A stretch of 44,859 bases of DNA from a phage, in sequence record PX290280.1; one strand, written 5' to 3'. This document shows positions 34,801 through 44,286 of the stretch, piece after piece; positions within the stretch are counted from its first letter, which is position 1; each line of letters starts with the position of its first letter. A program made the translations under genes and the position numbers. Under the pieces are notes generated by a model that was not told where the DNA came from, made no database searches, and saw nothing but the letters and a program-made list of their open reading frames with translations.

Positions 34801-35200
34801 AAAAGCCTATGTGAACTCTATTGGTCGAGAAGACCAAGATGAATATTTGGAAGAGAAGTTATCGCCTAAAGGGTTGGCCTTTGGTGCAATGGGTATGATG
34901 AGTACAACTGCTGTATTTAGTCTAGGTGGAGATTTCTTAGGTGGCCTAGGTGTTCTACCTTCTGAGTTAGTACAATCCCGTTATGAGGCTGGCTTTCAGA
35001 CTAAGGGTTTGATAGACCAAATACCACTAGTAGGTGTTGGTCAAGATGCATATCGTTTAGCAGATTCTATAACTAAATACGCAGAGGGTGATACAGAAGG
35101 TGTAGATGTGGCACGTAGGGCTTTACGCTTAGTGCCTCTAGCTAATGTAATAGGAATCCAGAACGCATTGCGTTATGGCTTAGATGAACTGGAGGATTAA
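31892..35200 (+). CDS. Large internal virion (core/ejection) protein
   Basis: 1102 aa; GGAGG ribosome-binding site; synteny with T7 gp16-class proteins. Confidence 0.65.
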   Translation: MEQDIKTNWAGYVQSTPEPFSIEAAPVSAPTIRQRNELQEQVLEAKADADILGAVGAAFQNEWLAFGGKRWYDRATADFTPQPDFEIQPEQREALRFKYGTDMMQTITEGVRSEDELNFRIQNADEDLERNKRIAQAGWVGSVATIGAAVLDPVGWVASIPTGGAAKVGLVGRAVRGAIAAGVSNAAIESVLVQGDMTRDLDDIMVALGSGMAMGGVIGAVARGRATKLSEQGDDRAASIVRSADAGDRYVRAVADDSIGAMRVKGEEVLTEGAFDVSSKGEDLLKTLQREGNAIDMTPRRWAGTLSALGTVVHSSQDASVRGLGARLFESPQGLGMQKASASLMQNTNLNRLKSADMNRFNDGFDLWLKENNINPVAGHTNSHYVQQYNEKVWEAVRIGMDESTPKSIRMAAEGQQAMYREALALRQRSGEAGFEKVKADDKYMPDIFDSMKARRQFSMHDKEDIIELFSRAYQNGSRKVPKEVADDIARAQVNRVADATLTGQLSFEKAMSGQTKAEYEALMRKAGFSDEEIEKMVEALDNKETRDNISNRAKMSLGLDVTQEYNGIRMRDFMNTNVEELTDNYMKEAAGGAALARQGFSTYQAALNAIDLVERNARNAAKDTKAHAQFEAESAKIRQSEPDYKKAQEKIEELKKRLKLKEKDEAAGLAIDEEIRQMREGLRLIMGKSIDSNPQDLSTKMLRRGRDITGVLRLGQMGFAQLGELANFMGEFGIAATTMALGKQFRFTSKALRNGDGFFRDKNLAEVERMVGYIGEDNWLTTKGARPDEFGDVTTVRGMMAHFDQSMNSIRRAQTNLSLFRMAQGSLERMTNRQIALSFIDHLEGKKIIPQKKLEELGLTQEFMTNLQKHYDANSKGSGLLGFDTMPYAMGETLANAIRRKSGLIIQRNFIGDEGIWMNKALGKTFAQLKSFSLVSGEKQFGRGIRHDKIGLAKKTAYGFALGSIVYAAKAYVNSIGREDQDEYLEEKLSPKGLAFGAMGMMSTTAVFSLGGDFLGGLGVLPSELVQSRYEAGFQTKGLIDQIPLVGVGQDAYRLADSITKYAEGDTEGVDVARRALRLVPLANVIGIQNALRYGLDELED

Positions 35201-36162
35201 TGAGTTATACTTTCACAGAACATATAGCCAACGGTACGCAAGTAACCTATCCCTTTAGCTTTGCTGGTAGGGATAAAGGTTATCTTCGTGCCTCAGATGT
35301 GATAGTGGAGTCTCTTCAAGGTAACACTTGGATTGAGGTTACATCTGGCTGGCAACTAACTGGCACGCACCAGATTACTTTTGATGTAGCACCAGTTGCA
35401 GGTTTGAAGTTCCGTATTCGAAGGGAAGTACAAAAGGAGTATCCATACGCTGAGTTTGACCGTGGTGTTACCTTGGATATGAAGTCTTTAAATGGTTCTT
35501 TCATTCATATACTGGAGATTACACAGGAGTTACTTGACGGGTTTTATCCAGAAGGATACTTCATTAAACAGAATGTAAGCTGGGGCGGCAATAAGATTAC
35601 TGATTTGGCTGATGGCACAAATCCTGGAGATGCAGTAAATAAAGGGCAGCTTGATGCCATCGACAAGAAGCATACAGATTGGAACGCCAAACAGGACATT
35701 GAGATTGCTGGCCTTAAGGCTGGTATGACTTCTGGTATTGCGCACAGAACTGTTCCTTGGTACACGATAGCCCAAGGTGGTGAGATTTCCGTAAAACCAC
35801 CTTATGAATTTCAAGATGCACTAGTTTTCCTTAATGGGGTATTGCAGCACCAAATTGTAGGCGCATACTCTATAAGCAACAACACTATCACTTTCGCAGA
35901 GCCGCTTGTGGCGGGTACAGAGGTGTATGTGCTGATTGGTAGTCGTGTGGCTACATCTGAACCTAATATTCAGTTAGAGTTGAACTTTGACTTAGTAGAA
36001 GGCCAACAAGTAGTACAGATTGGCTCTGCATTTAAGTACATTGAGGTCTACCTTGATGGATTATTACAACCTAAACTTGCTTATCAGGTAGACGGTGACA
36101 TTGTTACTTTCTCAGAAAGAGTACCAGAATGCCGGATGACTGCTAAGATTATCACAGCATAA
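35200..36162 (+). CDS. Tailspike adaptor protein (equivalent to the T7 gp17 N-terminal domain)
   Basis: 320 aa and located where T7 gene 17 sits; the two tailspikes are encoded separately at the genome end, as in SP6/K1-5-type phages. Confidence 0.65.
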   Translation: MSYTFTEHIANGTQVTYPFSFAGRDKGYLRASDVIVESLQGNTWIEVTSGWQLTGTHQITFDVAPVAGLKFRIRREVQKEYPYAEFDRGVTLDMKSLNGSFIHILEITQELLDGFYPEGYFIKQNVSWGGNKITDLADGTNPGDAVNKGQLDAIDKKHTDWNAKQDIEIAGLKAGMTSGIAHRTVPWYTIAQGGEISVKPPYEFQDALVFLNGVLQHQIVGAYSISNNTITFAEPLVAGTEVYVLIGSRVATSEPNIQLELNFDLVEGQQVVQIGSAFKYIEVYLDGLLQPKLAYQVDGDIVTFSERVPECRMTAKIITA

Positions 36163-36171
36163 GGAGGTGGG

Positions 36172-36366
36172 ATGATTAACTCCGAACTGGTAGATAGTGG
36201 TGTGAAGCTTGCGCCACCTGCACTCGTATCAGGTGGGTACTTCCTCGGTATCAGTTGGGATAATTGGGTGTTAATAGCAACATTCATTTATACCGTGTTG
36301 CAAATTGGGGACTGGTTTTATAATAAGTTCAAGATTTGGAGGGAGAAGCGTGAGCGTACACAATAA
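36172..36366 (+). CDS. Holin (T7 gp17.5-like)
   Basis: 64 aa; NWVLIATFIYTVLQIG parallels the T7 holin segment EWFYVAAIAYTVVQIG as recalled; AAGGAGG ribosome-binding site. Confidence 0.7.
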   Translation: MINSELVDSGVKLAPPALVSGGYFLGISWDNWVLIATFIYTVLQIGDWFYNKFKIWREKRERTQ

Positions 36367-36649
36367 ACATGCAGCTACAGAGGACGAGGTTGGCATTCTG
36401 CATGGTGCTATTACCAAAATCTTCAATAAGAAAGCACAGGCAATACTGGACACTATAGAAGAAGACCCTGATGCAGCATTACATTTAGTGTCTGGTAAGG
36501 ATATTGGTGCGATGTGTAAGTGGGTTCTTGATAACGGCATTACCGCCACACCTGCTGCACAGCAGGAAGAGTCCAAGTTATCTAAGCGCCTCAAGGCTAT
36601 CCGAGAGGCATCCAGTGGTAAGATAATTCAATTCACTAAGGAGGATTGA
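36350..36649 (+). CDS. Terminase small subunit
   Basis: GTG start 4-5 nt after GGAGGGA; position directly upstream of the large subunit. Confidence 0.55.
   Translation: MSVHNKHAATEDEVGILHGAITKIFNKKAQAILDTIEEDPDAALHLVSGKDIGAMCKWVLDNGITATPAAQQEESKLSKRLKAIREASSGKIIQFTKED
36441..36463 (+). promoter_or_regulatory. Partial phage promoter inside the terminase small-subunit gene
   Basis: CAATACTGGACACTATAGAAGAA: core conserved, upstream ATTTA missing. Confidence 0.45.
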
Positions 36650-38547
36650 TGGCTAAGGCAAGAGAATCACAAGCGGAGGCTCTTGCCAGATGGGAGATGC
36701 TACAGGAGTTACAGCAGACCTTTCCTTACACAGCGGAAGGTTTGCTTCTCTTTGCAGATACAGTTATTCATAACTTAATTGCAGGCAACCCTCATCTGAT
36801 TCGTATGCAGGCGGATATCTTGAAGTTCCTATTTTACGGACACAAGTACCGCCTCATCGAAGCGCCTCGTGGTATCGCTAAGACAACACTATCAGCAATC
36901 TATACGGTATTCCGTATTATTCATGAACCGCATAAGCGTATCATGGTTGTGTCCCAAAACGCCAAGCGAGCAGAGGAAATCGCAGGTTGGGTAGTTAAAA
37001 TCTTCCGTGGCTTAGACTTTCTTGAGTTTATGCTGCCGGATATCTACGCTGGGGACCGTGCATCCGTTAAGGCGTTTGAGATTCATTACACCCTACGTGG
37101 TAGTGATAAGTCTCCTTCTGTATCCTGTTACTCAATCGAAGCAGGTATGCAGGGTGCTCGTGCTGATATTATTCTAGCGGATGACGTAGAGTCGATGCAG
37201 AATGCTCGTACGGCAGCGGGCCGTGCCTTGCTTGAGGAACTGACTAAGGAGTTTGAATCTATCAACCAGTTTGGGGATATCATTTACCTTGGTACACCTC
37301 AGAACGTAAACTCTATCTACAACAACCTACCTGCTCGTGGTTACTCTGTTCGTATCTGGACTGCGCGTTACCCTTCAGTAGAGCAAGAGCAATGTTATGG
37401 CGACTTCCTTGCACCTATGATTGTTCAAGATATGAAGGACAACCCAGCACTTCGCTCAGGGTACGGGTTGGATGGTAATAGTGGTGCACCTTGTGCCCCT
37501 GAAATGTATGATGATGAAGTCCTGATTGAGAAGGAAATCTCTCAGGGTGCTGCTAAGTTCCAGCTTCAGTTCATGCTTAACACTCGCATGATGGATGCTG
37601 ACAGATACCCATTACGCCTGAACAATCTAATCTTCACCTCGTTTGGTACAGAGGAAGTCCCTGTGATGCCTACGTGGAGTAATGATTCCATAAACATCAT
37701 TGGTGATGCACCTAAGTATGGTAACAAGCCTACGGATTTCATGTACAGACCTGTAGCTCGCCCATACGAATGGGGTGCTGTCTCCCGCAAGATTATGTAT
37801 ATTGACCCTGCGGGTGGTGGTAAGAACGGAGATGAGACGGGTGTAGCCATCGTATTCCTGCACGGCACATTCATTTATGTGTATCAGTGCTTTGGTGTAC
37901 CTGGCGGATACCGAGAGTCGTCCCTGAATCGCATTGTGCAGGCCGCAAAGCAGGCGGGTGTTAAAGAGGTATTCATTGAGAAGAACTTTGGTCATGGCGC
38001 GTTTGAGGCGGTAATTAAGCCGTACTTTGAACGAGAGTGGCCTGTAACTCTGGAAGAGGATTACGCCACCGGACAGAAAGAGTTGCGTATCATTGAGACG
38101 CTGGAGCCGCTCATGGCAGCCCATAGGCTTATCTTCAATGCAGAGATGGTGAAGTCAGACTTTGAGTCGGTACAGCACTATCCGCTTGAACTACGCATGT
38201 CCTACAGTCTTTTCAATCAAATGTCGAACATAACGATTGAGAAGAACAGCCTCCGGCACGATGACCGCCTAGACGCCCTGTATGGCGCTATACGGCAATT
38301 AACTTCTCAGATAGACTATGACGAGGTTACACGGATTAATCGCCTCAGAGCGCAGGAGATGCGCGATTACATCCATGCTATGAACACACCTCATCTACGC
38401 AGGGCAATGCTATATGGAGATTACGGTACTGAGCGAAGAGTGACCAACACTTCCGTAGCGATGCAGCAGCGAGTTTACGGGCAGAACTACCGAAATAAAT
38501 CGGCAAGCAGAAATACACTTTCTGCAAGGATTTCAAGGACTTATTAA
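36649..38547 (+). CDS. Terminase large subunit
   Basis: 633 aa; Walker A-like EAPRGIAKTT; AAGGAGG ribosome-binding site; synteny. Confidence 0.85.
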   Translation: MAKARESQAEALARWEMLQELQQTFPYTAEGLLLFADTVIHNLIAGNPHLIRMQADILKFLFYGHKYRLIEAPRGIAKTTLSAIYTVFRIIHEPHKRIMVVSQNAKRAEEIAGWVVKIFRGLDFLEFMLPDIYAGDRASVKAFEIHYTLRGSDKSPSVSCYSIEAGMQGARADIILADDVESMQNARTAAGRALLEELTKEFESINQFGDIIYLGTPQNVNSIYNNLPARGYSVRIWTARYPSVEQEQCYGDFLAPMIVQDMKDNPALRSGYGLDGNSGAPCAPEMYDDEVLIEKEISQGAAKFQLQFMLNTRMMDADRYPLRLNNLIFTSFGTEEVPVMPTWSNDSINIIGDAPKYGNKPTDFMYRPVARPYEWGAVSRKIMYIDPAGGGKNGDETGVAIVFLHGTFIYVYQCFGVPGGYRESSLNRIVQAAKQAGVKEVFIEKNFGHGAFEAVIKPYFEREWPVTLEEDYATGQKELRIIETLEPLMAAHRLIFNAEMVKSDFESVQHYPLELRMSYSLFNQMSNITIEKNSLRHDDRLDALYGAIRQLTSQIDYDEVTRINRLRAQEMRDYIHAMNTPHLRRAMLYGDYGTERRVTNTSVAMQQRVYGQNYRNKSASRNTLSARISRTY

Positions 38548-38568
38548 TTACTGGACACTATAGAAGGA
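38546..38568 (+). promoter_or_regulatory. Phage RNAP promoter
   Basis: AATTACTGGACACTATAGAAGGA. Confidence 0.8.
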
Positions 38569-38598
38569 AGGCCCAGATAATAAGATAAATAATAGGTA

Positions 38599-38619
38599 AT
38601 ATATATATATATATATATA
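38599..38619. repeat. (AT)n dinucleotide microsatellite
   Basis: About ten uninterrupted AT units, followed at 38653-38672 by hairpin gggtgtac-tcct-gtacaccc. Confidence 0.7.
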
Positions 38620-38717
38620 GGTTAACCTAGGTTATATAGGTATGCCTTAGTATGGGTGTACTCCTGTACACCCTATTCCTTACTTCCTTACTATATTTAC
38701 ATAATAGGAGAGAGACA

Positions 38718-38996
38718 ATGGCTAATGATTATAGTAGTCAACCATTAACAGGTAAGTCTAAGAGAAAGCAGGTACAACCTGTAAGTGAAGAACTAATGCT
38801 TCCGGTAATCCCAAAAGAGGCAGCTAGTAAGAAAAGCAATGTTATTAATGATGCCACCAAATCAGGTAAACAGAAAGGGGCCATGGTATGCCTTGAAGTG
38901 GAAGGTGGTGTATTGAAGGTTGCTATCGCGGTTGATGGCAAAGAAGATTCAGAGTGGAAGTTAGTAACAGTGGAACCAGCTGTTAACCCAGTTTAA
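38718..38996 (+). CDS. Small late protein, paralog 1 (92 aa)
   Basis: AGGAGAGAG ribosome-binding site; shares SGKQKGAMV-LE...L-IAVA block with the next ORF. Confidence 0.6.
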   Translation: MANDYSSQPLTGKSKRKQVQPVSEELMLPVIPKEAASKKSNVINDATKSGKQKGAMVCLEVEGGVLKVAIAVDGKEDSEWKLVTVEPAVNPV

Positions 38997-39014
38997 GATA
39001 AGGAGGAAGATTAC

Positions 39015-39308
39015 ATGGCTAAATATGGTACTACAGGTTCTGTTACTGGTCAGGCTTTTCGAGTAAAAGCAGTACAAACTATTGCAACGGCAATCCCGAT
39101 GCCTGTTGTTAAAGAAGCAGACCTTAATAGTAAAGATCACCCTATCAACATCAAACATTTATCAGGTAAACAGAAAGGTGCAATGGTTGCTCTTGAGAAA
39201 AGTGACACAACCTTACATATTGCTGTTGCACGTGGTAGTGAACCAACAGACCCTTGGGATGTAACTGGCATGGAATCGCTCGCTGTCACTCCAGCAGGTG
39301 AAGAATAA
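39015..39308 (+). CDS. Small late protein, paralog 2 (97 aa)
   Basis: AAGGAGG ribosome-binding site; paralogous to 38718..38996. Confidence 0.6.
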   Translation: MAKYGTTGSVTGQAFRVKAVQTIATAIPMPVVKEADLNSKDHPINIKHLSGKQKGAMVALEKSDTTLHIAVARGSEPTDPWDVTGMESLAVTPAGEE

Positions 39309-39652
39309 TGCTTAACAAATACTTCAAGCGCCGTGAGTTCGCTTGCCGTTGTGGGTGCGGTACATCCACTGTTGATGCTGAATTACTACAGGTAGTCACA
39401 GATGTGCGTGAGCACTTTGGTTCCCCTGTAGTTATCACTTCGGGGCATCGCTGTGCTAAGCACAATGCTAATGTAGGAGGAGCTAAGAACTCCATGCATC
39501 TTACTGGTAAGGCTGCTGACATTAAAGTGTCTGGCATATTACCTTCTGAAGTGCATAAGTATCTTACTAGCAAATACCAAGGCAAGTATGGTATCGGTAA
39601 GTATAACTCCTTCACTCACATCGATGTACGGGATGGTTGTGCGCGATGGTAA
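39308..39652 (+). CDS. Endolysin, zinc peptidase M15-type
   Basis: ITSGHRCAKHN...GGAKNSMHLTGKAADI matches the SG-R...N...S-H..G-A-D signature of M15 cell-wall peptidases. Confidence 0.8.
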   Translation: MLNKYFKRREFACRCGCGTSTVDAELLQVVTDVREHFGSPVVITSGHRCAKHNANVGGAKNSMHLTGKAADIKVSGILPSEVHKYLTSKYQGKYGIGKYNSFTHIDVRDGCARW

Positions 39653-39777
39653 GATGTGTTGAATGGTGTGAGCGTATGGTTGCCCAAGCTGCCGAGGATG
39701 GCAACTATGATGACTGGAAGAACTACTCTGACTTGTTAGCTCAATGGAAAGGGAGATGCAATGAAAAAGCTGTTTAA
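39646..39777 (+). CDS. Hypothetical small Cys-containing protein (43 aa)
   Basis: ORF overlapping the endolysin stop; weak ribosome-binding site. Confidence 0.25.
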   Translation: MVRCVEWCERMVAQAAEDGNYDDWKNYSDLLAQWKGRCNEKAV

Positions 39778-39910
39778 GTCTAAGAAGGTTGTAGGTGCAC
39801 TGGTTGCACTTGTTATTGCTCTTGTTTCTGTAGGCCTTGGTGTAGACCTTGGCTCTGGCACGGAATCCTCTGTGACAGATGTGGTCTGCCAAGTGATTAC
39901 CTGTGAATAA
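39761..39910 (+). CDS. Small single-pass membrane protein (49 aa), possible second holin or antiholin
   Basis: GGGAG ribosome-binding site; N-terminal KK-rich region, then transmembrane helix VGALVALVIALVSVGLGV. Confidence 0.5.
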   Translation: MKKLFKSKKVVGALVALVIALVSVGLGVDLGSGTESSVTDVVCQVITCE

Positions 39911-40124
39911 GTTTCTAGAAGTGCTGGCAGGTCTTATTGGCCTGCTTGTCTCTGCTAAGAAGAAACAAGAAGAGAAGGAGGCACAAAGTGAAGCGAATCA
40001 TGCTAGCGACAATCCTGCTGATTGGTTCGCTGACCACTTCCGGGTGTCAGCAGGCGTTACCAGAGAAAGCAATGGTGAAACCTCTGGGGCCGACGCTGAC
40101 GGCAGTTTACGAGGTGGAAGATAA
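39903..40124 (+). CDS. i-spanin-like protein (Rz-like)
   Basis: N-terminal transmembrane helix FLEVLAGLIGLLVSA followed by a charged region; overlapped by the lipoprotein ORF. Confidence 0.5.
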   Translation: MNKFLEVLAGLIGLLVSAKKKQEEKEAQSEANHASDNPADWFADHFRVSAGVTRESNGETSGADADGSLRGGR

Positions 40125-40197
40125 GGTCTGTTTCAGTAAGCCTGACGCTACAAAACTTGGTCTGTACATTCTTTCGCTAGAACGAGGATATAATTAA
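39988..40197 (+). CDS. o-spanin-like outer-membrane lipoprotein (Rz1-like)
   Basis: GTG start 6 nt after AAGGAGG; signal peptide with lipobox LTTSG-C; overlaps the i-spanin ORF in another frame. Confidence 0.6.
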   Translation: MKRIMLATILLIGSLTTSGCQQALPEKAMVKPLGPTLTAVYEVEDKVCFSKPDATKLGLYILSLERGYN

Positions 40198-40226
40198 TAC
40201 ATAACTTTATGTATCAGTGTCTTACG

Positions 40227-40249
40227 ATTTACTGGACACTATAGAAGGA
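40227..40249 (+). promoter_or_regulatory. Phage RNAP promoter upstream of the tailspike genes
   Basis: ATTTACTGGACACTATAGAAGGA. Confidence 0.8.
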
Positions 40250-40326
40250 GGAAGAGTGCCGTTCAAATGAACGGCCTATTACTAGCCAATCTTCATAGGG
40301 AGGGTTGGGAAGTAATAGGAGGTTTA

Positions 40327-41766
40327 ATGGCTAATATTACCAAACCTGTCACAACTGGTATTATACATGAAGGAAGGCTGCTATCAGATTATCTAAAACA
40401 AGCATGGGATAACACCTTACACGCTGATAACTACTTTGTTAGTGTTAAAGACTTTGGCGCTAAGGGTGATGGCTCTGCTGATGATACTGCTGCATTCAAA
40501 GCTGCACTTGCTTCTGGTAAGAATGTATATATCCCTGTAGGTATTTATATAATTAGTGAGACTTTGTATTTTAAGAATCAGGTTATAAAAGGGGGCGGAA
40601 TAGCACCTATTCCGAGTCTTGGTACAATACTTGCAATCTCACACAGTGAGCCTGCATTGAAATATGATGTAAGTGCAGGTTACTCTATGGGTGGTTATTT
40701 AGGTGGGTTCTTCATAGATTATGGAGAGAACAAACCAGATAACTATGCAGGCAGAAAAGGCATAGATCTAGGTGATGCCGACCAACAAGCATGGCCTTCT
40801 CAATTTATCATTGAGAACATCATTGTCCGTGGTGCATACTTTGGTTTGCATGATGAAACAGGAGCATTCCAATACTCAATGCGCAATGTGGTTGCTATCA
40901 ATTGCTGGGAGGGGTTCCGTAAGTTCACTGGAACTACAGTCCTTATGGATACATGCTATGCGCTTAATTGCTATCAAGCATATAGACTGGCTAATGTTTA
41001 TAATATGACAATGAATAACTGCGCCATGGATGGATGCAATGATATCCAAGGTTTACAGGCATTTGATATTACAAACTGCAAAGGTCTTGTGATAAATGGC
41101 ATGTATAGTGAGAATTGTGAGATCCATCATAGTGGTAATGCTTCTATATTTATTCATGGAGATTCTACAGTAACAATCAACGGTTATGCCTTACACTCGC
41201 ATAATGTCGTTGTTGATCCATCATCTGGAAGTGAAGAAGCATACTTTCTTAGAGCGCACGACAGCTCTAGGGTCAATGTAGATGGAATCTTCTTCGGTGA
41301 GAACCTTAAATCTACTAGTATCTTCACCTACCCAATTATGGCCTCTGGTGAGTCTAGAATTAAGCTAGGAACTACAGCACTTAAGGCATGGGTAGGTGCT
41401 AAGGGTGGTGCATCTATGGCTGCTGTTGGAGATAGTCTCATTGAATATGACAATACCGTATTTAACCCATCACTTACTGCAGGTTGGTGCAGTAATAATG
41501 GTGTTGTAGCTAAAGGGACACTAGTTGTAAACACAACATTAGAACCTAATGCAGATTTAAATGCAGGAACTATACAATTAGTTGGTGACTATAAACCAAA
41601 TAAAGGTGATGTTCTTACATATGGTTCTACTTTCGATGTTCAATCATGTGCTATTATTCTGAAGCCACAAGGTGATAATAGTTGTAATGTTTACATTAAA
41701 AACCTAAGTGCAGGTAGTAGTGTTACACTTAACGGAATATTGCACGTACAGGCAATTCGTAGGTAA
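40327..41766 (+). CDS. Tailspike 1: beta-helix polysaccharide depolymerase-like
   Basis: ATG 40327 with AGGAGG ribosome-binding site; VKDFGAKGDGSADDTAAFKAAL signature of pectate-lyase-type beta-helix proteins; no T7 gp17 N-terminal domain. Confidence 0.75.
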   Translation: MANITKPVTTGIIHEGRLLSDYLKQAWDNTLHADNYFVSVKDFGAKGDGSADDTAAFKAALASGKNVYIPVGIYIISETLYFKNQVIKGGGIAPIPSLGTILAISHSEPALKYDVSAGYSMGGYLGGFFIDYGENKPDNYAGRKGIDLGDADQQAWPSQFIIENIIVRGAYFGLHDETGAFQYSMRNVVAINCWEGFRKFTGTTVLMDTCYALNCYQAYRLANVYNMTMNNCAMDGCNDIQGLQAFDITNCKGLVINGMYSENCEIHHSGNASIFIHGDSTVTINGYALHSHNVVVDPSSGSEEAYFLRAHDSSRVNVDGIFFGENLKSTSIFTYPIMASGESRIKLGTTALKAWVGAKGGASMAAVGDSLIEYDNTVFNPSLTAGWCSNNGVVAKGTLVVNTTLEPNADLNAGTIQLVGDYKPNKGDVLTYGSTFDVQSCAIILKPQGDNSCNVYIKNLSAGSSVTLNGILHVQAIRR

Positions 41767-41850: not shown

Positions 41851-44286
41851 ATGATTCAAAGACTAGGTTCTTCATTAGTTAAATTCAAGAGTAAAATAGC
41901 AGGTGCAATCTGGCGTAACTTGGATGACAAGCTCACCGAGGTTGTATCGCTTAAAGATTTTGGAGCCAAAGGTGATGGTAAGACAAACGACCAAGATGCA
42001 GTAAATGCAGCGATGGCTTCAGGTAAGAGAATTGACGGTGCTGGTGCTACTTACAAAGTATCATCTTTACCTGATATGGAGCGATTCTATAACACCCGCT
42101 TCGTATGGGAACGTTTAGCAGGTCAACCTCTTTACTATGTGAGTAAAGGTTTTATCAATGGTGAACTCTATAAAATCACGGACAACCCTTATTACAATGC
42201 TTGGCCTCAAGACAAGGCGTTTGTATATGAGAATGTGATATATGCACCCTACATGGGTAGCGACCGTCATGGTGTTAGTCGTCTGCATGTATCATGGGTT
42301 AAGTCTGGTGACGATGGTCAAACATGGTCTACTCCAGAGTGGTTAACTGATCTGCATCCAGATTACCCTACAGTGAACTATCATTGTATGAGTATGGGTG
42401 TATGTCGCAACCGTCTGTTTGCCATGATTGAAACACGTACTTTAGCCAAGAACGAACTAACCAATTGTGCATTGTGGGATCGTCCTATGTCTCGTAGTCT
42501 GCACCTTACTGGTGGTATCACTAAAGCTGCAAATCAGAGATATGCAACAATCCATGTACCTGATCACGGACTATTCGTGGGCGATTTTGTTAACTTCTCT
42601 AATTCTGCGGTAACAGGTGTATCAGGTGATATGACTGTTGCAACGGTAATAGATAAGGACAACTTCACGGTCCTTACACCTAACCAGCAGACTTCAGATT
42701 TGAATAACGCTGGAAAGAGTTGGCACATGGGTACTTCTTTCCATAAGTCTCCATGGCGTAAGACAGATCTTGGTCTAATCCCTAGTGTCACAGAGGTGCA
42801 TAGCTTTGCTACTATTGATAACAATGGCTTTGTTATGGGCTATCATCAAGGTGATGTAGCTCCACGAGAAGTTGGTCTTTTCTACTTCCCTGATGCTTTC
42901 AATAGCCCATCTAATTATGTTCGTCGTCAGATACCATCTGAGTATGAACCAGATGCGTCAGAGCCATGCATCAAGTACTATGACGGTGTATTATACCTTA
43001 TCACTCGTGGCACTCGTGGTGACAGACTTGGAAGCTCTTTGCATCGTAGTAGAGATATAGGTCAGACTTGGGAGTCACTGAGATTTCCACATAATGTTCA
43101 TCATACTACCTTACCTTTTGCTAAAGTAGGAGATGACCTTATTATGTTTGGTTCAGAACGTGCAGAAAATGAATGGGAAGCAGGTGCACCAGATGATCGT
43201 TACAAGGCATCTTATCCTCGTACCTTCTATGCACGATTGAATGTAAACAATTGGAATGCAGATGATATTGAATGGGTTAACATCACAGACCAAATCTATC
43301 AAGGTGACATTGTGAACTCTAGTGTAGGTGTAGGTTCTGTTGTAGTTAAAGACAGCTACATTTACTATATCTTTGGTGGTGAAAACCATTTCAACCCAAT
43401 GACTTATGGTGACAACAAAGATAAAGACCCATTTAAAGGTCATGGACACCCTACTGATATATACTGCTATAAGATGCAGATTGCAAATGACAATCGTGTA
43501 TCTCGTAAGTTTACATATGGTGCAACTCCTGGTCAAGCTATACCTACTTTCATGGGTACTGATGGGATACGAAATATCCCTGCACCTTTGTATTTCTCAG
43601 ATAACATTGTTACAGAGGATACTAAAGTTGGACACTTAACAATTAAAGCAAGCACAAGTTCCAATATACGATCTGAAGCGCAGATGGAAGGTGAATATGG
43701 CTTTATTGGCAAGTCTGTTCCAAAGGATAACCCAACTGGTCAACGTTTGATTATTTGTGGTGGAGAAGCGACTTCGTCCTCTTCAGGTGCACAGATAACT
43801 TTGCACGGCTCTAATTCAAGTAATGCTAATCGTATCACTTATAACGGAAATGAGCACCTATTCCAAGGTGCACCAATCATGCCTGCTGTAGATAACCAGT
43901 TTGCTGCTGGTGGACCTAGTAACCGATTCACTACCATATACCTAGGTAGTGACCCTGTTACCACTTCAGATGCTGAACACAAGTACGGTATCTCTAGTAT
44001 TAATACCAAGGTGTTAAAGGCTTGGAGTAGAGTTGGTTTTAAACAGTATGGTTTGAATAGTGAAGCAGAGAGAAGTCTTGATAGCATACACTTCGGTGTC
44101 TTGGCTCAGGATATTGTAGCTGCTTTTGAAGCTGAAGGGTTAGATGCCATTAAGTATGGAATTATGTCATTCGAAGAAGGTAGGTACGGTGTGAGGTATA
44201 GTGAAGTTCTAATCCTAGAGGCTGCCTACACTCGCCATCGTCTTGATAAATTAGAGGAGATGTATGCCGCTAATAAAATCAGTTAA
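41851..44286 (+). CDS. Tailspike 2: endosialidase-like, with a C-terminal intramolecular chaperone domain
   Basis: 811 aa; two sialidase Asp-boxes SGDDGQTW and SRDIGQTW; C-terminal about 105 aa with an S-D junction typical of self-cleaving chaperone domains. Confidence 0.75.
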   Translation: MIQRLGSSLVKFKSKIAGAIWRNLDDKLTEVVSLKDFGAKGDGKTNDQDAVNAAMASGKRIDGAGATYKVSSLPDMERFYNTRFVWERLAGQPLYYVSKGFINGELYKITDNPYYNAWPQDKAFVYENVIYAPYMGSDRHGVSRLHVSWVKSGDDGQTWSTPEWLTDLHPDYPTVNYHCMSMGVCRNRLFAMIETRTLAKNELTNCALWDRPMSRSLHLTGGITKAANQRYATIHVPDHGLFVGDFVNFSNSAVTGVSGDMTVATVIDKDNFTVLTPNQQTSDLNNAGKSWHMGTSFHKSPWRKTDLGLIPSVTEVHSFATIDNNGFVMGYHQGDVAPREVGLFYFPDAFNSPSNYVRRQIPSEYEPDASEPCIKYYDGVLYLITRGTRGDRLGSSLHRSRDIGQTWESLRFPHNVHHTTLPFAKVGDDLIMFGSERAENEWEAGAPDDRYKASYPRTFYARLNVNNWNADDIEWVNITDQIYQGDIVNSSVGVGSVVVKDSYIYYIFGGENHFNPMTYGDNKDKDPFKGHGHPTDIYCYKMQIANDNRVSRKFTYGATPGQAIPTFMGTDGIRNIPAPLYFSDNIVTEDTKVGHLTIKASTSSNIRSEAQMEGEYGFIGKSVPKDNPTGQRLIICGGEATSSSSGAQITLHGSNSSNANRITYNGNEHLFQGAPIMPAVDNQFAAGGPSNRFTTIYLGSDPVTTSDAEHKYGISSINTKVLKAWSRVGFKQYGLNSEAERSLDSIHFGVLAQDIVAAFEAEGLDAIKYGIMSFEEGRYGVRYSEVLILEAAYTRHRLDKLEEMYAANKIS

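Follow-up and report, generated by a model that had tools for sequence, protein, structure and literature searches.

The lysis genes of the phage sequence PX290280.1, a stretch of 44,859 nucleotides (nt) that is referred to in its full length as the window, lie between positions 36172 and 40197. Over positions 36100–40300 the window is 98.1% identical in nucleotide sequence to Escherichia phage K1-5, a member of Vectrevirus in the Molineuxvirinae, Autographiviridae, and dozens of other related coliphages are 90–97% identical to it over the same region. By its sequence, the region holds the lysis genes of the well-known K1-5/SP6-like phage group, in a split layout that is ordinary for the T7 supergroup and with most of its parts already annotated or present in SpaninDB. 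Comparison with related loci indicates that a 73 amino acid (aa) gene, which is unannotated in K1-5, K1E and SP6 and is called gene (c) here, is a real and conserved partner of the lipoprotein gene that overlaps it. The genes in question, all on the plus strand, are as follows.

36172–36366, plus strand: T7 gp17.5-type holin of 64 aa, assigned from PF10746, phrog_920 and BLASTP to T7 gp17.5.
39308–39652, plus strand: M15 (Peptidase_M15_3) endolysin of 114 aa, assigned from PF08291 and phrog_894.
39637–39777, plus strand: gene (a), a soluble protein of 43–46 aa with a CxxWC motif, starting at TTG 39637 or ATG 39646.
39761–39910, plus strand: gene (b), a membrane protein of 49 aa in which a basic N-terminus is followed by a single transmembrane domain (TMD) and some 20 further residues, the last of them VVCQVITCE.
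39903–40124, plus strand: gene (c), 73 aa, with a GTG start that overlaps the stop of gene (b) (GTGAATAA).
39988–40197, plus strand: gene (d), a 69-aa lipoprotein precursor, with a GTG start in the +1 frame relative to gene (c).

The initial annotation of this DNA had described a block behind the terminase genes made up of an M15 endolysin, a 49-aa single-pass membrane protein and an overlapping spanin pair, and all of these open reading frames (ORFs) are present as it described them. Gene (a), a tandem pair of paralogues at 38718–39308 and the SP6-type promoters at 38546 and 40227 were missing from it.

Genes (c) and (d) overlap by 137 nt in different frames. They were compared with 14 annotated relatives and with 69 IMG/VR loci that a profile of the 73-aa product had retrieved, and the ratio of non-synonymous to synonymous substitution rates (dN/dS) was obtained by the pooled Nei-Gojobori method over 26 distinct SP6-like loci. 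Before the overlap, gene (c) has a dN/dS of 0.23 in its own frame, as against 2.0 and 2.9 in the off-frames. Where gene (c) overlies the signal peptide of gene (d), the value is 0.20 for the (c) frame and 1.0 for the (d) frame, whereas the mature domain of gene (d), overlying the tail of gene (c), gives 0.13 for the (d) frame and 1.03 for the (c) frame. Beyond the overlap the value for gene (d) is 0.085. The off-frame values for genes (b), (c) and (d) are overall about 1–5, with one extreme value of 14. In these alignments constraint is shared out between the two frames in a complementary manner, which is the mark of two real genes that overlap. A sequence ‘LLIG’ is conserved in the signal peptides of the (d) family because the PADW codons of gene (c) are read there in the other frame.

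The pairing of the two genes extends well beyond the SP6-like phages. The (c) family was found in 84 loci and in 61 clusters at 50% identity, with products that are nearly all 49–95 aa in length. An ORF corresponding to gene (d) is present in 83 of the 84 loci that carry an ORF with the (c) motif, the exception apparently being truncated, and it invariably lies in frame +1 with respect to gene (c), both in the loci that could be scored strictly (74/74) and in 9 of the other 10, which were assessed by eye. The start of gene (d) falls 64–118 nt after that of gene (c), and the pair is kept down to 28% identity. On its other side, gene (c) begins within the end of gene (b) at all 26 SP6-like loci, the overlap of start and stop being 8 or 4 nt. 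The module always stands behind an endolysin gene, and the endolysins are of at least five Pfam types, namely M15_3, VanY/M15_4, Amidase_3, GH108 and GH24 phage lysozyme (metagenomic phages); in Gajwadongvirus-like phages the pair lies behind an annotated transglycosylase-type endolysin. The genes, their conservation, the selection on them, the architecture of their overlap and their synteny can all be read directly from these loci. The comparison favours the overlapping spanin-like pair of the initial annotation. No Pfam match above noise was obtained for the 46-, 49-, 73- and 69-aa proteins or for their distant homologues.

Gene (d) is preceded by the sequence AAGGAGG, 6 nt upstream of the GTG at 39988 that had been proposed as its start. 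The predicted signal peptide, M/VKRIMLATILLIGSLTTSG, ends immediately before the cysteine of the lipobox TSGC, giving a mature part of 50 aa. TSGC departs from the pattern [LVI][ASTVI][GAS]C at position -3, where there is a threonine. This residue had been noted before as unusual; the threonine is indeed there, but it is the commonest variant in the (d) family (32 of 76 loci), relatives with isoleucine, leucine or valine at this position having lipoboxes such as ISGC, LTAC, LVGC and VTGC. Deviant lipoboxes are also documented among spanins. Among 63 distinct sequences the residue at +2 is Gln, Val, Ser, Ala, Gly, Thr, Leu or Lys and never Asp, consistent with sorting to the outer membrane, and the mature protein has exactly one additional cysteine in all 63. 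The C-terminus is conserved, with the sequence KPxKPTL...C...DAxKLGxYILxLERGY in the window and the pattern KPxKPTL...C...LGxYIxxLE across the family. The protein matches phrog_8971 (Rz-like spanin) with an E value of 1.1e-36 and its UniRef name is ‘O-spanin’. From these features gene (d) encodes a candidate o-spanin, a putative outer-membrane lipoprotein. A lipoprotein with a C-terminal domain of this kind (...YILDLERGY) is also encoded at 1480–1689 of Vibrio phage PVP-XSN (L012), with no overlapping ORF of the 73-aa type; its gene follows a gene on the opposite strand and adjoins an integrase gene.

By position, architecture and lipoprotein features, genes (c) and (d) fit a two-component spanin of the overlapped type. 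The combined length of the two proteins outside the membranes, about 105 residues, falls inside the published range of 62–300 residues for catalogued spanins. SpaninDB scores the homologues of genes (c) and (d) in UAB_Phi78 as an overlapped pair, the i-spanin having 69 aa, of which 48 are listed as periplasmic domain, and the o-spanin 61 aa (PMC6139136). In the same work K1-5, K1E and SP6 are filed as having ‘separated’ spanins, the part of i-spanin being given to the 49-aa protein (Kongari et al, 2018; PMC6139136), so that the (c)/(d) family is treated inconsistently within one paper, between UAB_Phi78 on the one hand and K1-5, K1E and SP6 on the other. The separated-pair assignment has been adopted in the LL11 record and its genome announcement, and gene (b) is accordingly a ‘putative I-spanin’ in LL11, a ‘holin’ in RefSeq and PHROGs, or hypothetical. 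The three reference phages K1-5 (NC_008152/AY370674), K1E and SP6 have the same genes in the same order as the window, with genes 38 (holin), 43 (endolysin), 44 and 45, and K1-5 gp44 and gp45, as entered in SpaninDB, agree almost residue for residue with the products of genes (b) and (d). Their records have no annotation for the 73-aa or the 46-aa ORF, and there is no substantive difference between them and the window.

For the separated pair to be correct, (b) would be the i-spanin, (d) the o-spanin and the 73-aa ORF irrelevant. A strong TMD behind a basic N-terminus gives (b) the type II topology expected of an i-spanin, it has two cysteines on the periplasmic side, its gene ends 77 nt upstream of gene (d), and the assignment is published both in the supplement of Kongari et al (2018; PMC6139136) and with LL11. 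The curators themselves, however, flagged the 49-aa protein with ‘Too small?’ and ‘Too short’, only 18–21 of its residues being periplasmic (PMC6139136). The separated pair also leaves unexplained the purifying selection on the 73-aa ORF and its pairing with gene (d) in 83 of 84 loci; at distant loci, moreover, the slot of gene (b) is occupied by two-TMD proteins without a periplasmic tail, and gp19.5 of T7, the probable homologue of (b), coexists with a complete spanin, 18.5/18.7. We consider the separated pair decidedly unlikely. Since gene (c) is a real gene, paired with gene (d) and placed behind at least five types of endolysin, the sequence comparison favours an overlapped spanin over the published separated pair.

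The product of gene (b) has one strong hydrophobic segment (VVGALVALVIALVSVGLGV); on an approximate Hessa scale its 19 residues add up to a deltaG of about -1.6. The portion beyond it is about 20 residues, too short for an i-spanin that has to reach an o-spanin. A Shine-Dalgarno sequence, AGGGAG, lies upstream of the gene, and the dN/dS is 0.29 in its own frame against 1.47 and 1.48 in the other two. The protein matches phrog_4712, a family labelled ‘holin’. The second TMD that is a trait of pinholins and class II holins is absent, the last 14 residues being too short and too polar to form one. At distant loci the slot is filled by unrelated holin-like proteins of 55–80 aa with two TMDs and no periplasmic tail, which abut the start of gene (c). 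T7 gp19.5, likewise of 49 aa, also has a basic N-terminal part and a single TMD, and its last residues are VVCSILTCSD, so that the two share a C-terminal VVCxxxTC, and the wider pattern of VCxxxxC plus one or two residues at the C-terminus is seen when MFRLLLNLLRHRVTYRFLVVLCAALGYASLTGDLSSLESVVCSILTCSD is set against MKKLFKSKKVVGALVALVIALVSVGLGVDLGSGTESSVTDVVCQVITCE.

In a pairwise BLASTP comparison (b) and T7 gp19.5 match with an E value of 2e-4. When the (b) family was compared by hhalign with the single T7 gp19.5 sequence the probability was 61%, and comparison of family with family (18 gp19.5 sequences, 24 homologues of (b)) gave a probability of 77% and an E value of 2e-5, in an alignment that is collinear, columns 18–48 against columns 19–49. 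Of the controls, 30 column-shuffled alignments reached at most 1.8% probability and other small membrane families at most 13%. T7 gp19.5 belongs to phrog_2193 and itself matches phrog_4712 weakly (E 0.03), and a distant two-TMD positional equivalent of (b) also weakly matches phrog_2193. From these comparisons gene (b) is probably a homologue of T7 gene 19.5.

T7 has its own complete spanin, 18.5/18.7, alongside gp19.5, which therefore is not the T7 i-spanin. In two independent evolution studies, deletion of holin gene 17.5 or a disabled endolysin was accompanied by the substitutions A24D and E38G in gene 19.5, for which both studies proposed an accessory holin-like or lysis-timing role (PMC2680503; PMC8365609). 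The likeness to gp19.5, the presence of a separate spanin in T7, the substitutions in gene 19.5 and the two-TMD equivalents in the same slot together argue for gene (b) as a candidate accessory factor that helps to permeabilise the inner membrane or to time lysis, and against its being a spanin subunit. The initial annotation had suggested a second holin, a pinholin or an antiholin; a link to lysis timing is retained through the probable homology to gp19.5, but the two TMDs of a pinholin are not there.

The holin itself is readily assigned. It matches Pfam PF10746 (Phage_holin_2_2) over residues 4–59 of 64, and so over its full length, with 95.5 bits against a cut-off of 25.4, and phrog_920 (holin) with an E value of 5.8e-28. 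To T7 gp17.5 it is 30% identical (BLASTP, E 4e-9), and its counterpart is annotated as a holin in the K1-5 and LL11 records. Its position between the adaptor or tail-fibre gene and the terminase small subunit gene (terS), where it had been placed initially, corresponds to the T7 order 17, 17.5, 18. An unannotated homologue was found in the same gap between adaptor and terS of Pectobacterium phage PP99 (L086, KY250034; 37373–37606, tblastn E 3e-6). As PP99 is a distant Gajwadongvirus, the 17.5-type holin is conserved at this position beyond the SP6-like phages.

The endolysin matches PF08291 over residues 4–106 of 114 with 116 bits (cut-off 23.2) and phrog_894 (endolysin) with an E value of 1.2e-45, and there is a weak match to PDB 1LBU, a Zn D-Ala-D-Ala carboxypeptidase. 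Its N-terminus (MLNKYFKRREFACRCG; MLNKYFKRREFACRCGCGTS) has no hydrophobic stretch and no signal or signal-arrest-release segment, unlike the transglycosylase-type endolysins of the Gajwadong-like relatives, which have hydrophobic segments at the start. The M15 endolysin is, as far as can be predicted, of the canonical holin-dependent type and cytoplasmic.

The product of gene (c) starts with a hydrophobic helix, which is followed by a charged one, by the conserved motif NPADWFADHF and by a tail without order. The protein matches phrog_9219 with an E value of 2.9e-32, a family for which PHROGs gives no function. The conserved positions are L11, E23, A27, Q28, P38, W41, F42, H45 and F46. In an AlphaFold2 model with a predicted local distance difference test score (pLDDT) of 60, residues 3–34 form a helix that continues as a charged segment for about 16 residues beyond the putative membrane segment, a second helix, residues 38–46, covers the motif, and residues 51–73 are a disordered tail. 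The 61 matches in 1.84 billion representative proteins were 49–95 aa in length with the exception of two that are apparently chimeric gene calls; no long Rz-like relative was among them and nothing links gene (c) to the canonical i-spanins. A search of PDB sequences with the family profile gave no meaningful match. When a distant homologue was run by tblastn against the phage collection there was one weak match, and the distant clade is known only from metagenomes. The sequence VSA/KKK was considered as a signal-peptidase site and rejected, as the site is not conserved and is followed by lysines. On a TARA contig (L107, 329–616, protein P0139) the upstream two-TMD protein contributes its first TMD and loop to a natural in-frame fusion with the soluble part of (c), and an overlapping lipoprotein gene follows the fusion; this is a single 1.8-kb contig seen in two samples. 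In this one, anecdotal case the soluble part of (c) would be periplasmic.

In the window as in T7, a homologous holin lies directly before terS, and a 49-aa membrane protein ending in VVCxxxTC lies downstream of the terminase large subunit gene (terL) behind a phage promoter; the lysis genes of T7, 3.5 (amidase), 17.5, 18.5/18.7 and 19.5, are scattered too and do not form a single cassette. In contrast to the window, the T7 spanin genes lie between terS and terL, are embedded one in the other and are longer (143 and 83 aa), and the endolysin is the early gene 3.5 amidase and not a late M15 peptidase. Homology of genes (c) and (d) to T7 18.5/18.7 was considered and rejected: the T7 spanins belong to PHROGs 1327 and 4306, those of the window to 9219 and 8971, and there are no cross-matches between the families. 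The likeness to lambda Rz/Rz1 lies in a candidate inner-membrane partner and a small lipoprotein in the +1 frame, with a periplasmic cysteine, placed after the endolysin. Rz1, however, is fully embedded in Rz, whereas genes (c) and (d) overlap only in part. The periplasmic domain of lambda Rz is about 130 residues long and contains two coiled coils and cysteines; (c) differs from it in having about 55 residues outside the membrane, with a short continuation of the helix, a nine-residue helix and a disordered tail, no cysteine and a marginal TMD. No sequence similarity of the window genes to lambda Rz/Rz1 was detected in the Pfam and PHROG searches.

On balance, the genes of the window probably form a split lysis set of the K1-5/SP6 kind, with a 17.5-type holin, an M15 endolysin, the gp19.5-like (b) and a miniature two-component spanin made of (c) and (d). 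The 17.5-type holin would permeabilise the inner membrane late in infection, possibly modulated by (b), and the cytoplasmic M15 peptidase would leave through the holin lesions to degrade the peptidoglycan. The lipoprotein (d), probably as a dimer linked by a disulfide through its single conserved cysteine, would meet the membrane-attached (c) by way of the conserved motifs, and once the wall had been degraded the two together would breach the outer membrane. Genetic architecture and context make (c) the candidate inner-membrane partner, a mini i-spanin; its membrane topology and its binding to (d), like the biochemical function of each protein of the set, are inferred.

Several points weigh against this assignment. 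Its hydrophobic segment (FLEVLAGLIGLLVSA) is 15 residues long and has a conserved acidic residue inside it, with a summed approximate deltaG of +0.9. Membrane topology prediction, which had been put forward initially as a check on the lysis genes, gives (b) a strong TMD but finds no favourable N-terminal window of 19 residues in (c): the best is +8.3 and none of 65 distinct family members is below +2, as compared with -1.6 for (b) and -2.5 for lambda Rz on the same approximate Hessa scale. In distant members of the family the N-terminal helix is amphipathic. The long coiled coil of the Rz type is absent from the AlphaFold2 model of (c), there is no cysteine in the protein, and the models of both (c) and (d) are of low confidence (pLDDT 57–60) and were used for secondary structure only. 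With a pairwise E value of 2e-4 and a PHROG cross-match of 0.03, the link between (b) and gp19.5 is moderately significant, and both are short, compositionally biased membrane proteins. No functional test for this phage group was found in the literature.

The features of the N-terminal segment bear on another explanation of gene (c), namely that its product regulates lysis from the cytoplasm or the membrane periphery, or acts like a holin or antiholin with its N-terminus out and its C-terminus in, that it is translationally coupled to (b), and that (d) acts with some other partner or alone. Such a role would suit a hydrophobic segment that is short or amphipathic throughout the family and is followed by a stretch rich in lysine and arginine, the overlap of the (c) start with the (b) stop in all 26 SP6-like loci, the lack of a coiled coil and of cysteine, and the (d)-like lipoprotein that is found without (c) in PVP-XSN. 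It accounts less well for the near-universal overlapped pairing and for the joint conservation of the (c) motif and the C-terminal domain in (d), which together suggest a functional pair. The arrangement of charges also counts against it, lambda Rz likewise having a short N-terminal flank with a single charge and a charged C-terminal flank. The metagenomic fusion, although a single anecdotal case, would put the soluble part of (c) in the periplasm, and the UAB_Phi78 homologue is listed in SpaninDB as an overlapped i-spanin (PMC6139136). A role of this kind for (c) is in our view unlikely.

It is also conceivable that genes (b), (c) and (d) together make up a distinct, minimal device of three components for disrupting the outer membrane, and not a scaled-down Rz/Rz1. 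In most of about 60 clusters (c) has neither a genuine TMD nor a coiled coil. In such a device the upstream gp19.5-like or holin-like protein, with which (c) is coupled in translation, would be all that brings (c) to the membrane or keeps it there; or else (c) would escape through the holin lesions. The NPxxWFxxHF helix of (c) would then engage the C-terminal hairpin-helix domain of the lipoprotein. If this were so, T7 gp19.5 and its relatives would be a third component linking inner-membrane permeabilisation to disruption of the outer membrane. We regard a three-component device as quite unlikely and retain the miniature two-component spanin as the more probable role of (c) and (d).

Between the endolysin and the 49-aa gene lies gene (a), which overlaps the end of the one and the start of the other. 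It matches phrog_1312 with an E value of 2.8e-18 and has a dN/dS of 0.11 as against 1.2 and 1.4 in the off-frames. The gene is unannotated in the K1-5 record, and it occupies the same place in the SP6-like phages and in Tola, KL01, DT115P1 and Koku003; from this conservation it is part of the conserved post-terminase module. In one close relative (L017) the gene has an in-frame stop.

The lysis genes are set among the following features.

35200–36162: adaptor or tail-fibre gene of 320 aa, preceding the holin gene.
36350–36649, plus strand: terS, with a GTG start.
36649–38547, plus strand: terL.
38546–38566, plus strand: SP6-type promoter with 1 mismatch to ATTTACnnGACACTATAGAAG, which starts the post-terminase transcription unit.
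40227–40247, plus strand: SP6-type promoter with the exact consensus, from which the tailspike unit starts, at the downstream boundary of the lysis block.

The terminase pair was assigned from PF11123 and PF22530 matches, the PHROG terminase families and the K1-5 annotation, and it separates the holin from the remaining lysis genes. In the window there are 13 sites resembling SP6-type promoters where 0 are expected, and a weaker one with 3 mismatches (CAATACTGGACACTATAGAAG) is found inside terS (36441–36461, plus strand). Scans for sigma-70 promoters and terminators gave background levels only. Between the promoter at 38546 and the first gene of its unit is a GC-rich hairpin (GGGTGTACTCCTGTACACCC) followed by a T-rich tract (38654–38673, plus strand), with a possible function in termination, attenuation or RNA processing. 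The unit begins with the tandem paralogues at 38718–38996 (92 aa) and 39015–39308 (97 aa), both on the plus strand, which are 34% identical (E 4e-13) and share a 36-nt core repeat; related phages carry either one such gene or two in the interval from terL to the endolysin gene. The public-record label for these genes, ‘acetyl-CoA acetyltransferase’ (phrog_2725), is implausible given that the proteins are only 92–97 aa long.

Behind the lysis block, the first tailspike ORF (40267–41766, plus strand) encodes 499 aa and a second ORF (41851–44286) encodes 811 aa. At the position equivalent to the first of these K1-5 has a 1899-nt coding sequence (632 aa), and so the first tailspike may differ from that of K1-5. 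A small outer-membrane lipoprotein encoded directly upstream of receptor-binding tailspike genes recalls the superinfection-exclusion or receptor-masking lipoproteins of the T5 Llp or Cor type, and (d) might by analogy be one of these and not a lysis protein. Its C-terminal domain, though, is conserved across phages of Escherichia, Salmonella, Klebsiella, Proteus, Pectobacterium, Aeromonas, Vibrio and Edwardsiella that have unrelated tailspikes, distant loci place the gene after the endolysin and away from tailspike genes, and in the window the promoter at 40227 separates it from the tailspike unit. An exclusion role for (d) is thus highly improbable.

The lysis genes of the window do not represent a new kind of system; their parts are of known kinds and mostly catalogued, and what is gained is a refinement of annotation. 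A single consistent assignment would be available for K1-5, K1E and SP6 and for many therapeutic Vectrevirus, Zindervirus and Klebsiella-phage genomes, in which the 73-aa gene is missing or unnamed and the 49-aa gene is labelled variously as holin, i-spanin or hypothetical. The probable connection of the 49-aa protein to T7 gp19.5, which has recurred in lysis-evolution experiments, provides a testable handle on the role of gp19.5-type proteins. It also becomes testable whether a spanin of about 105 residues, lacking a coiled coil, can fuse or breach the envelope.

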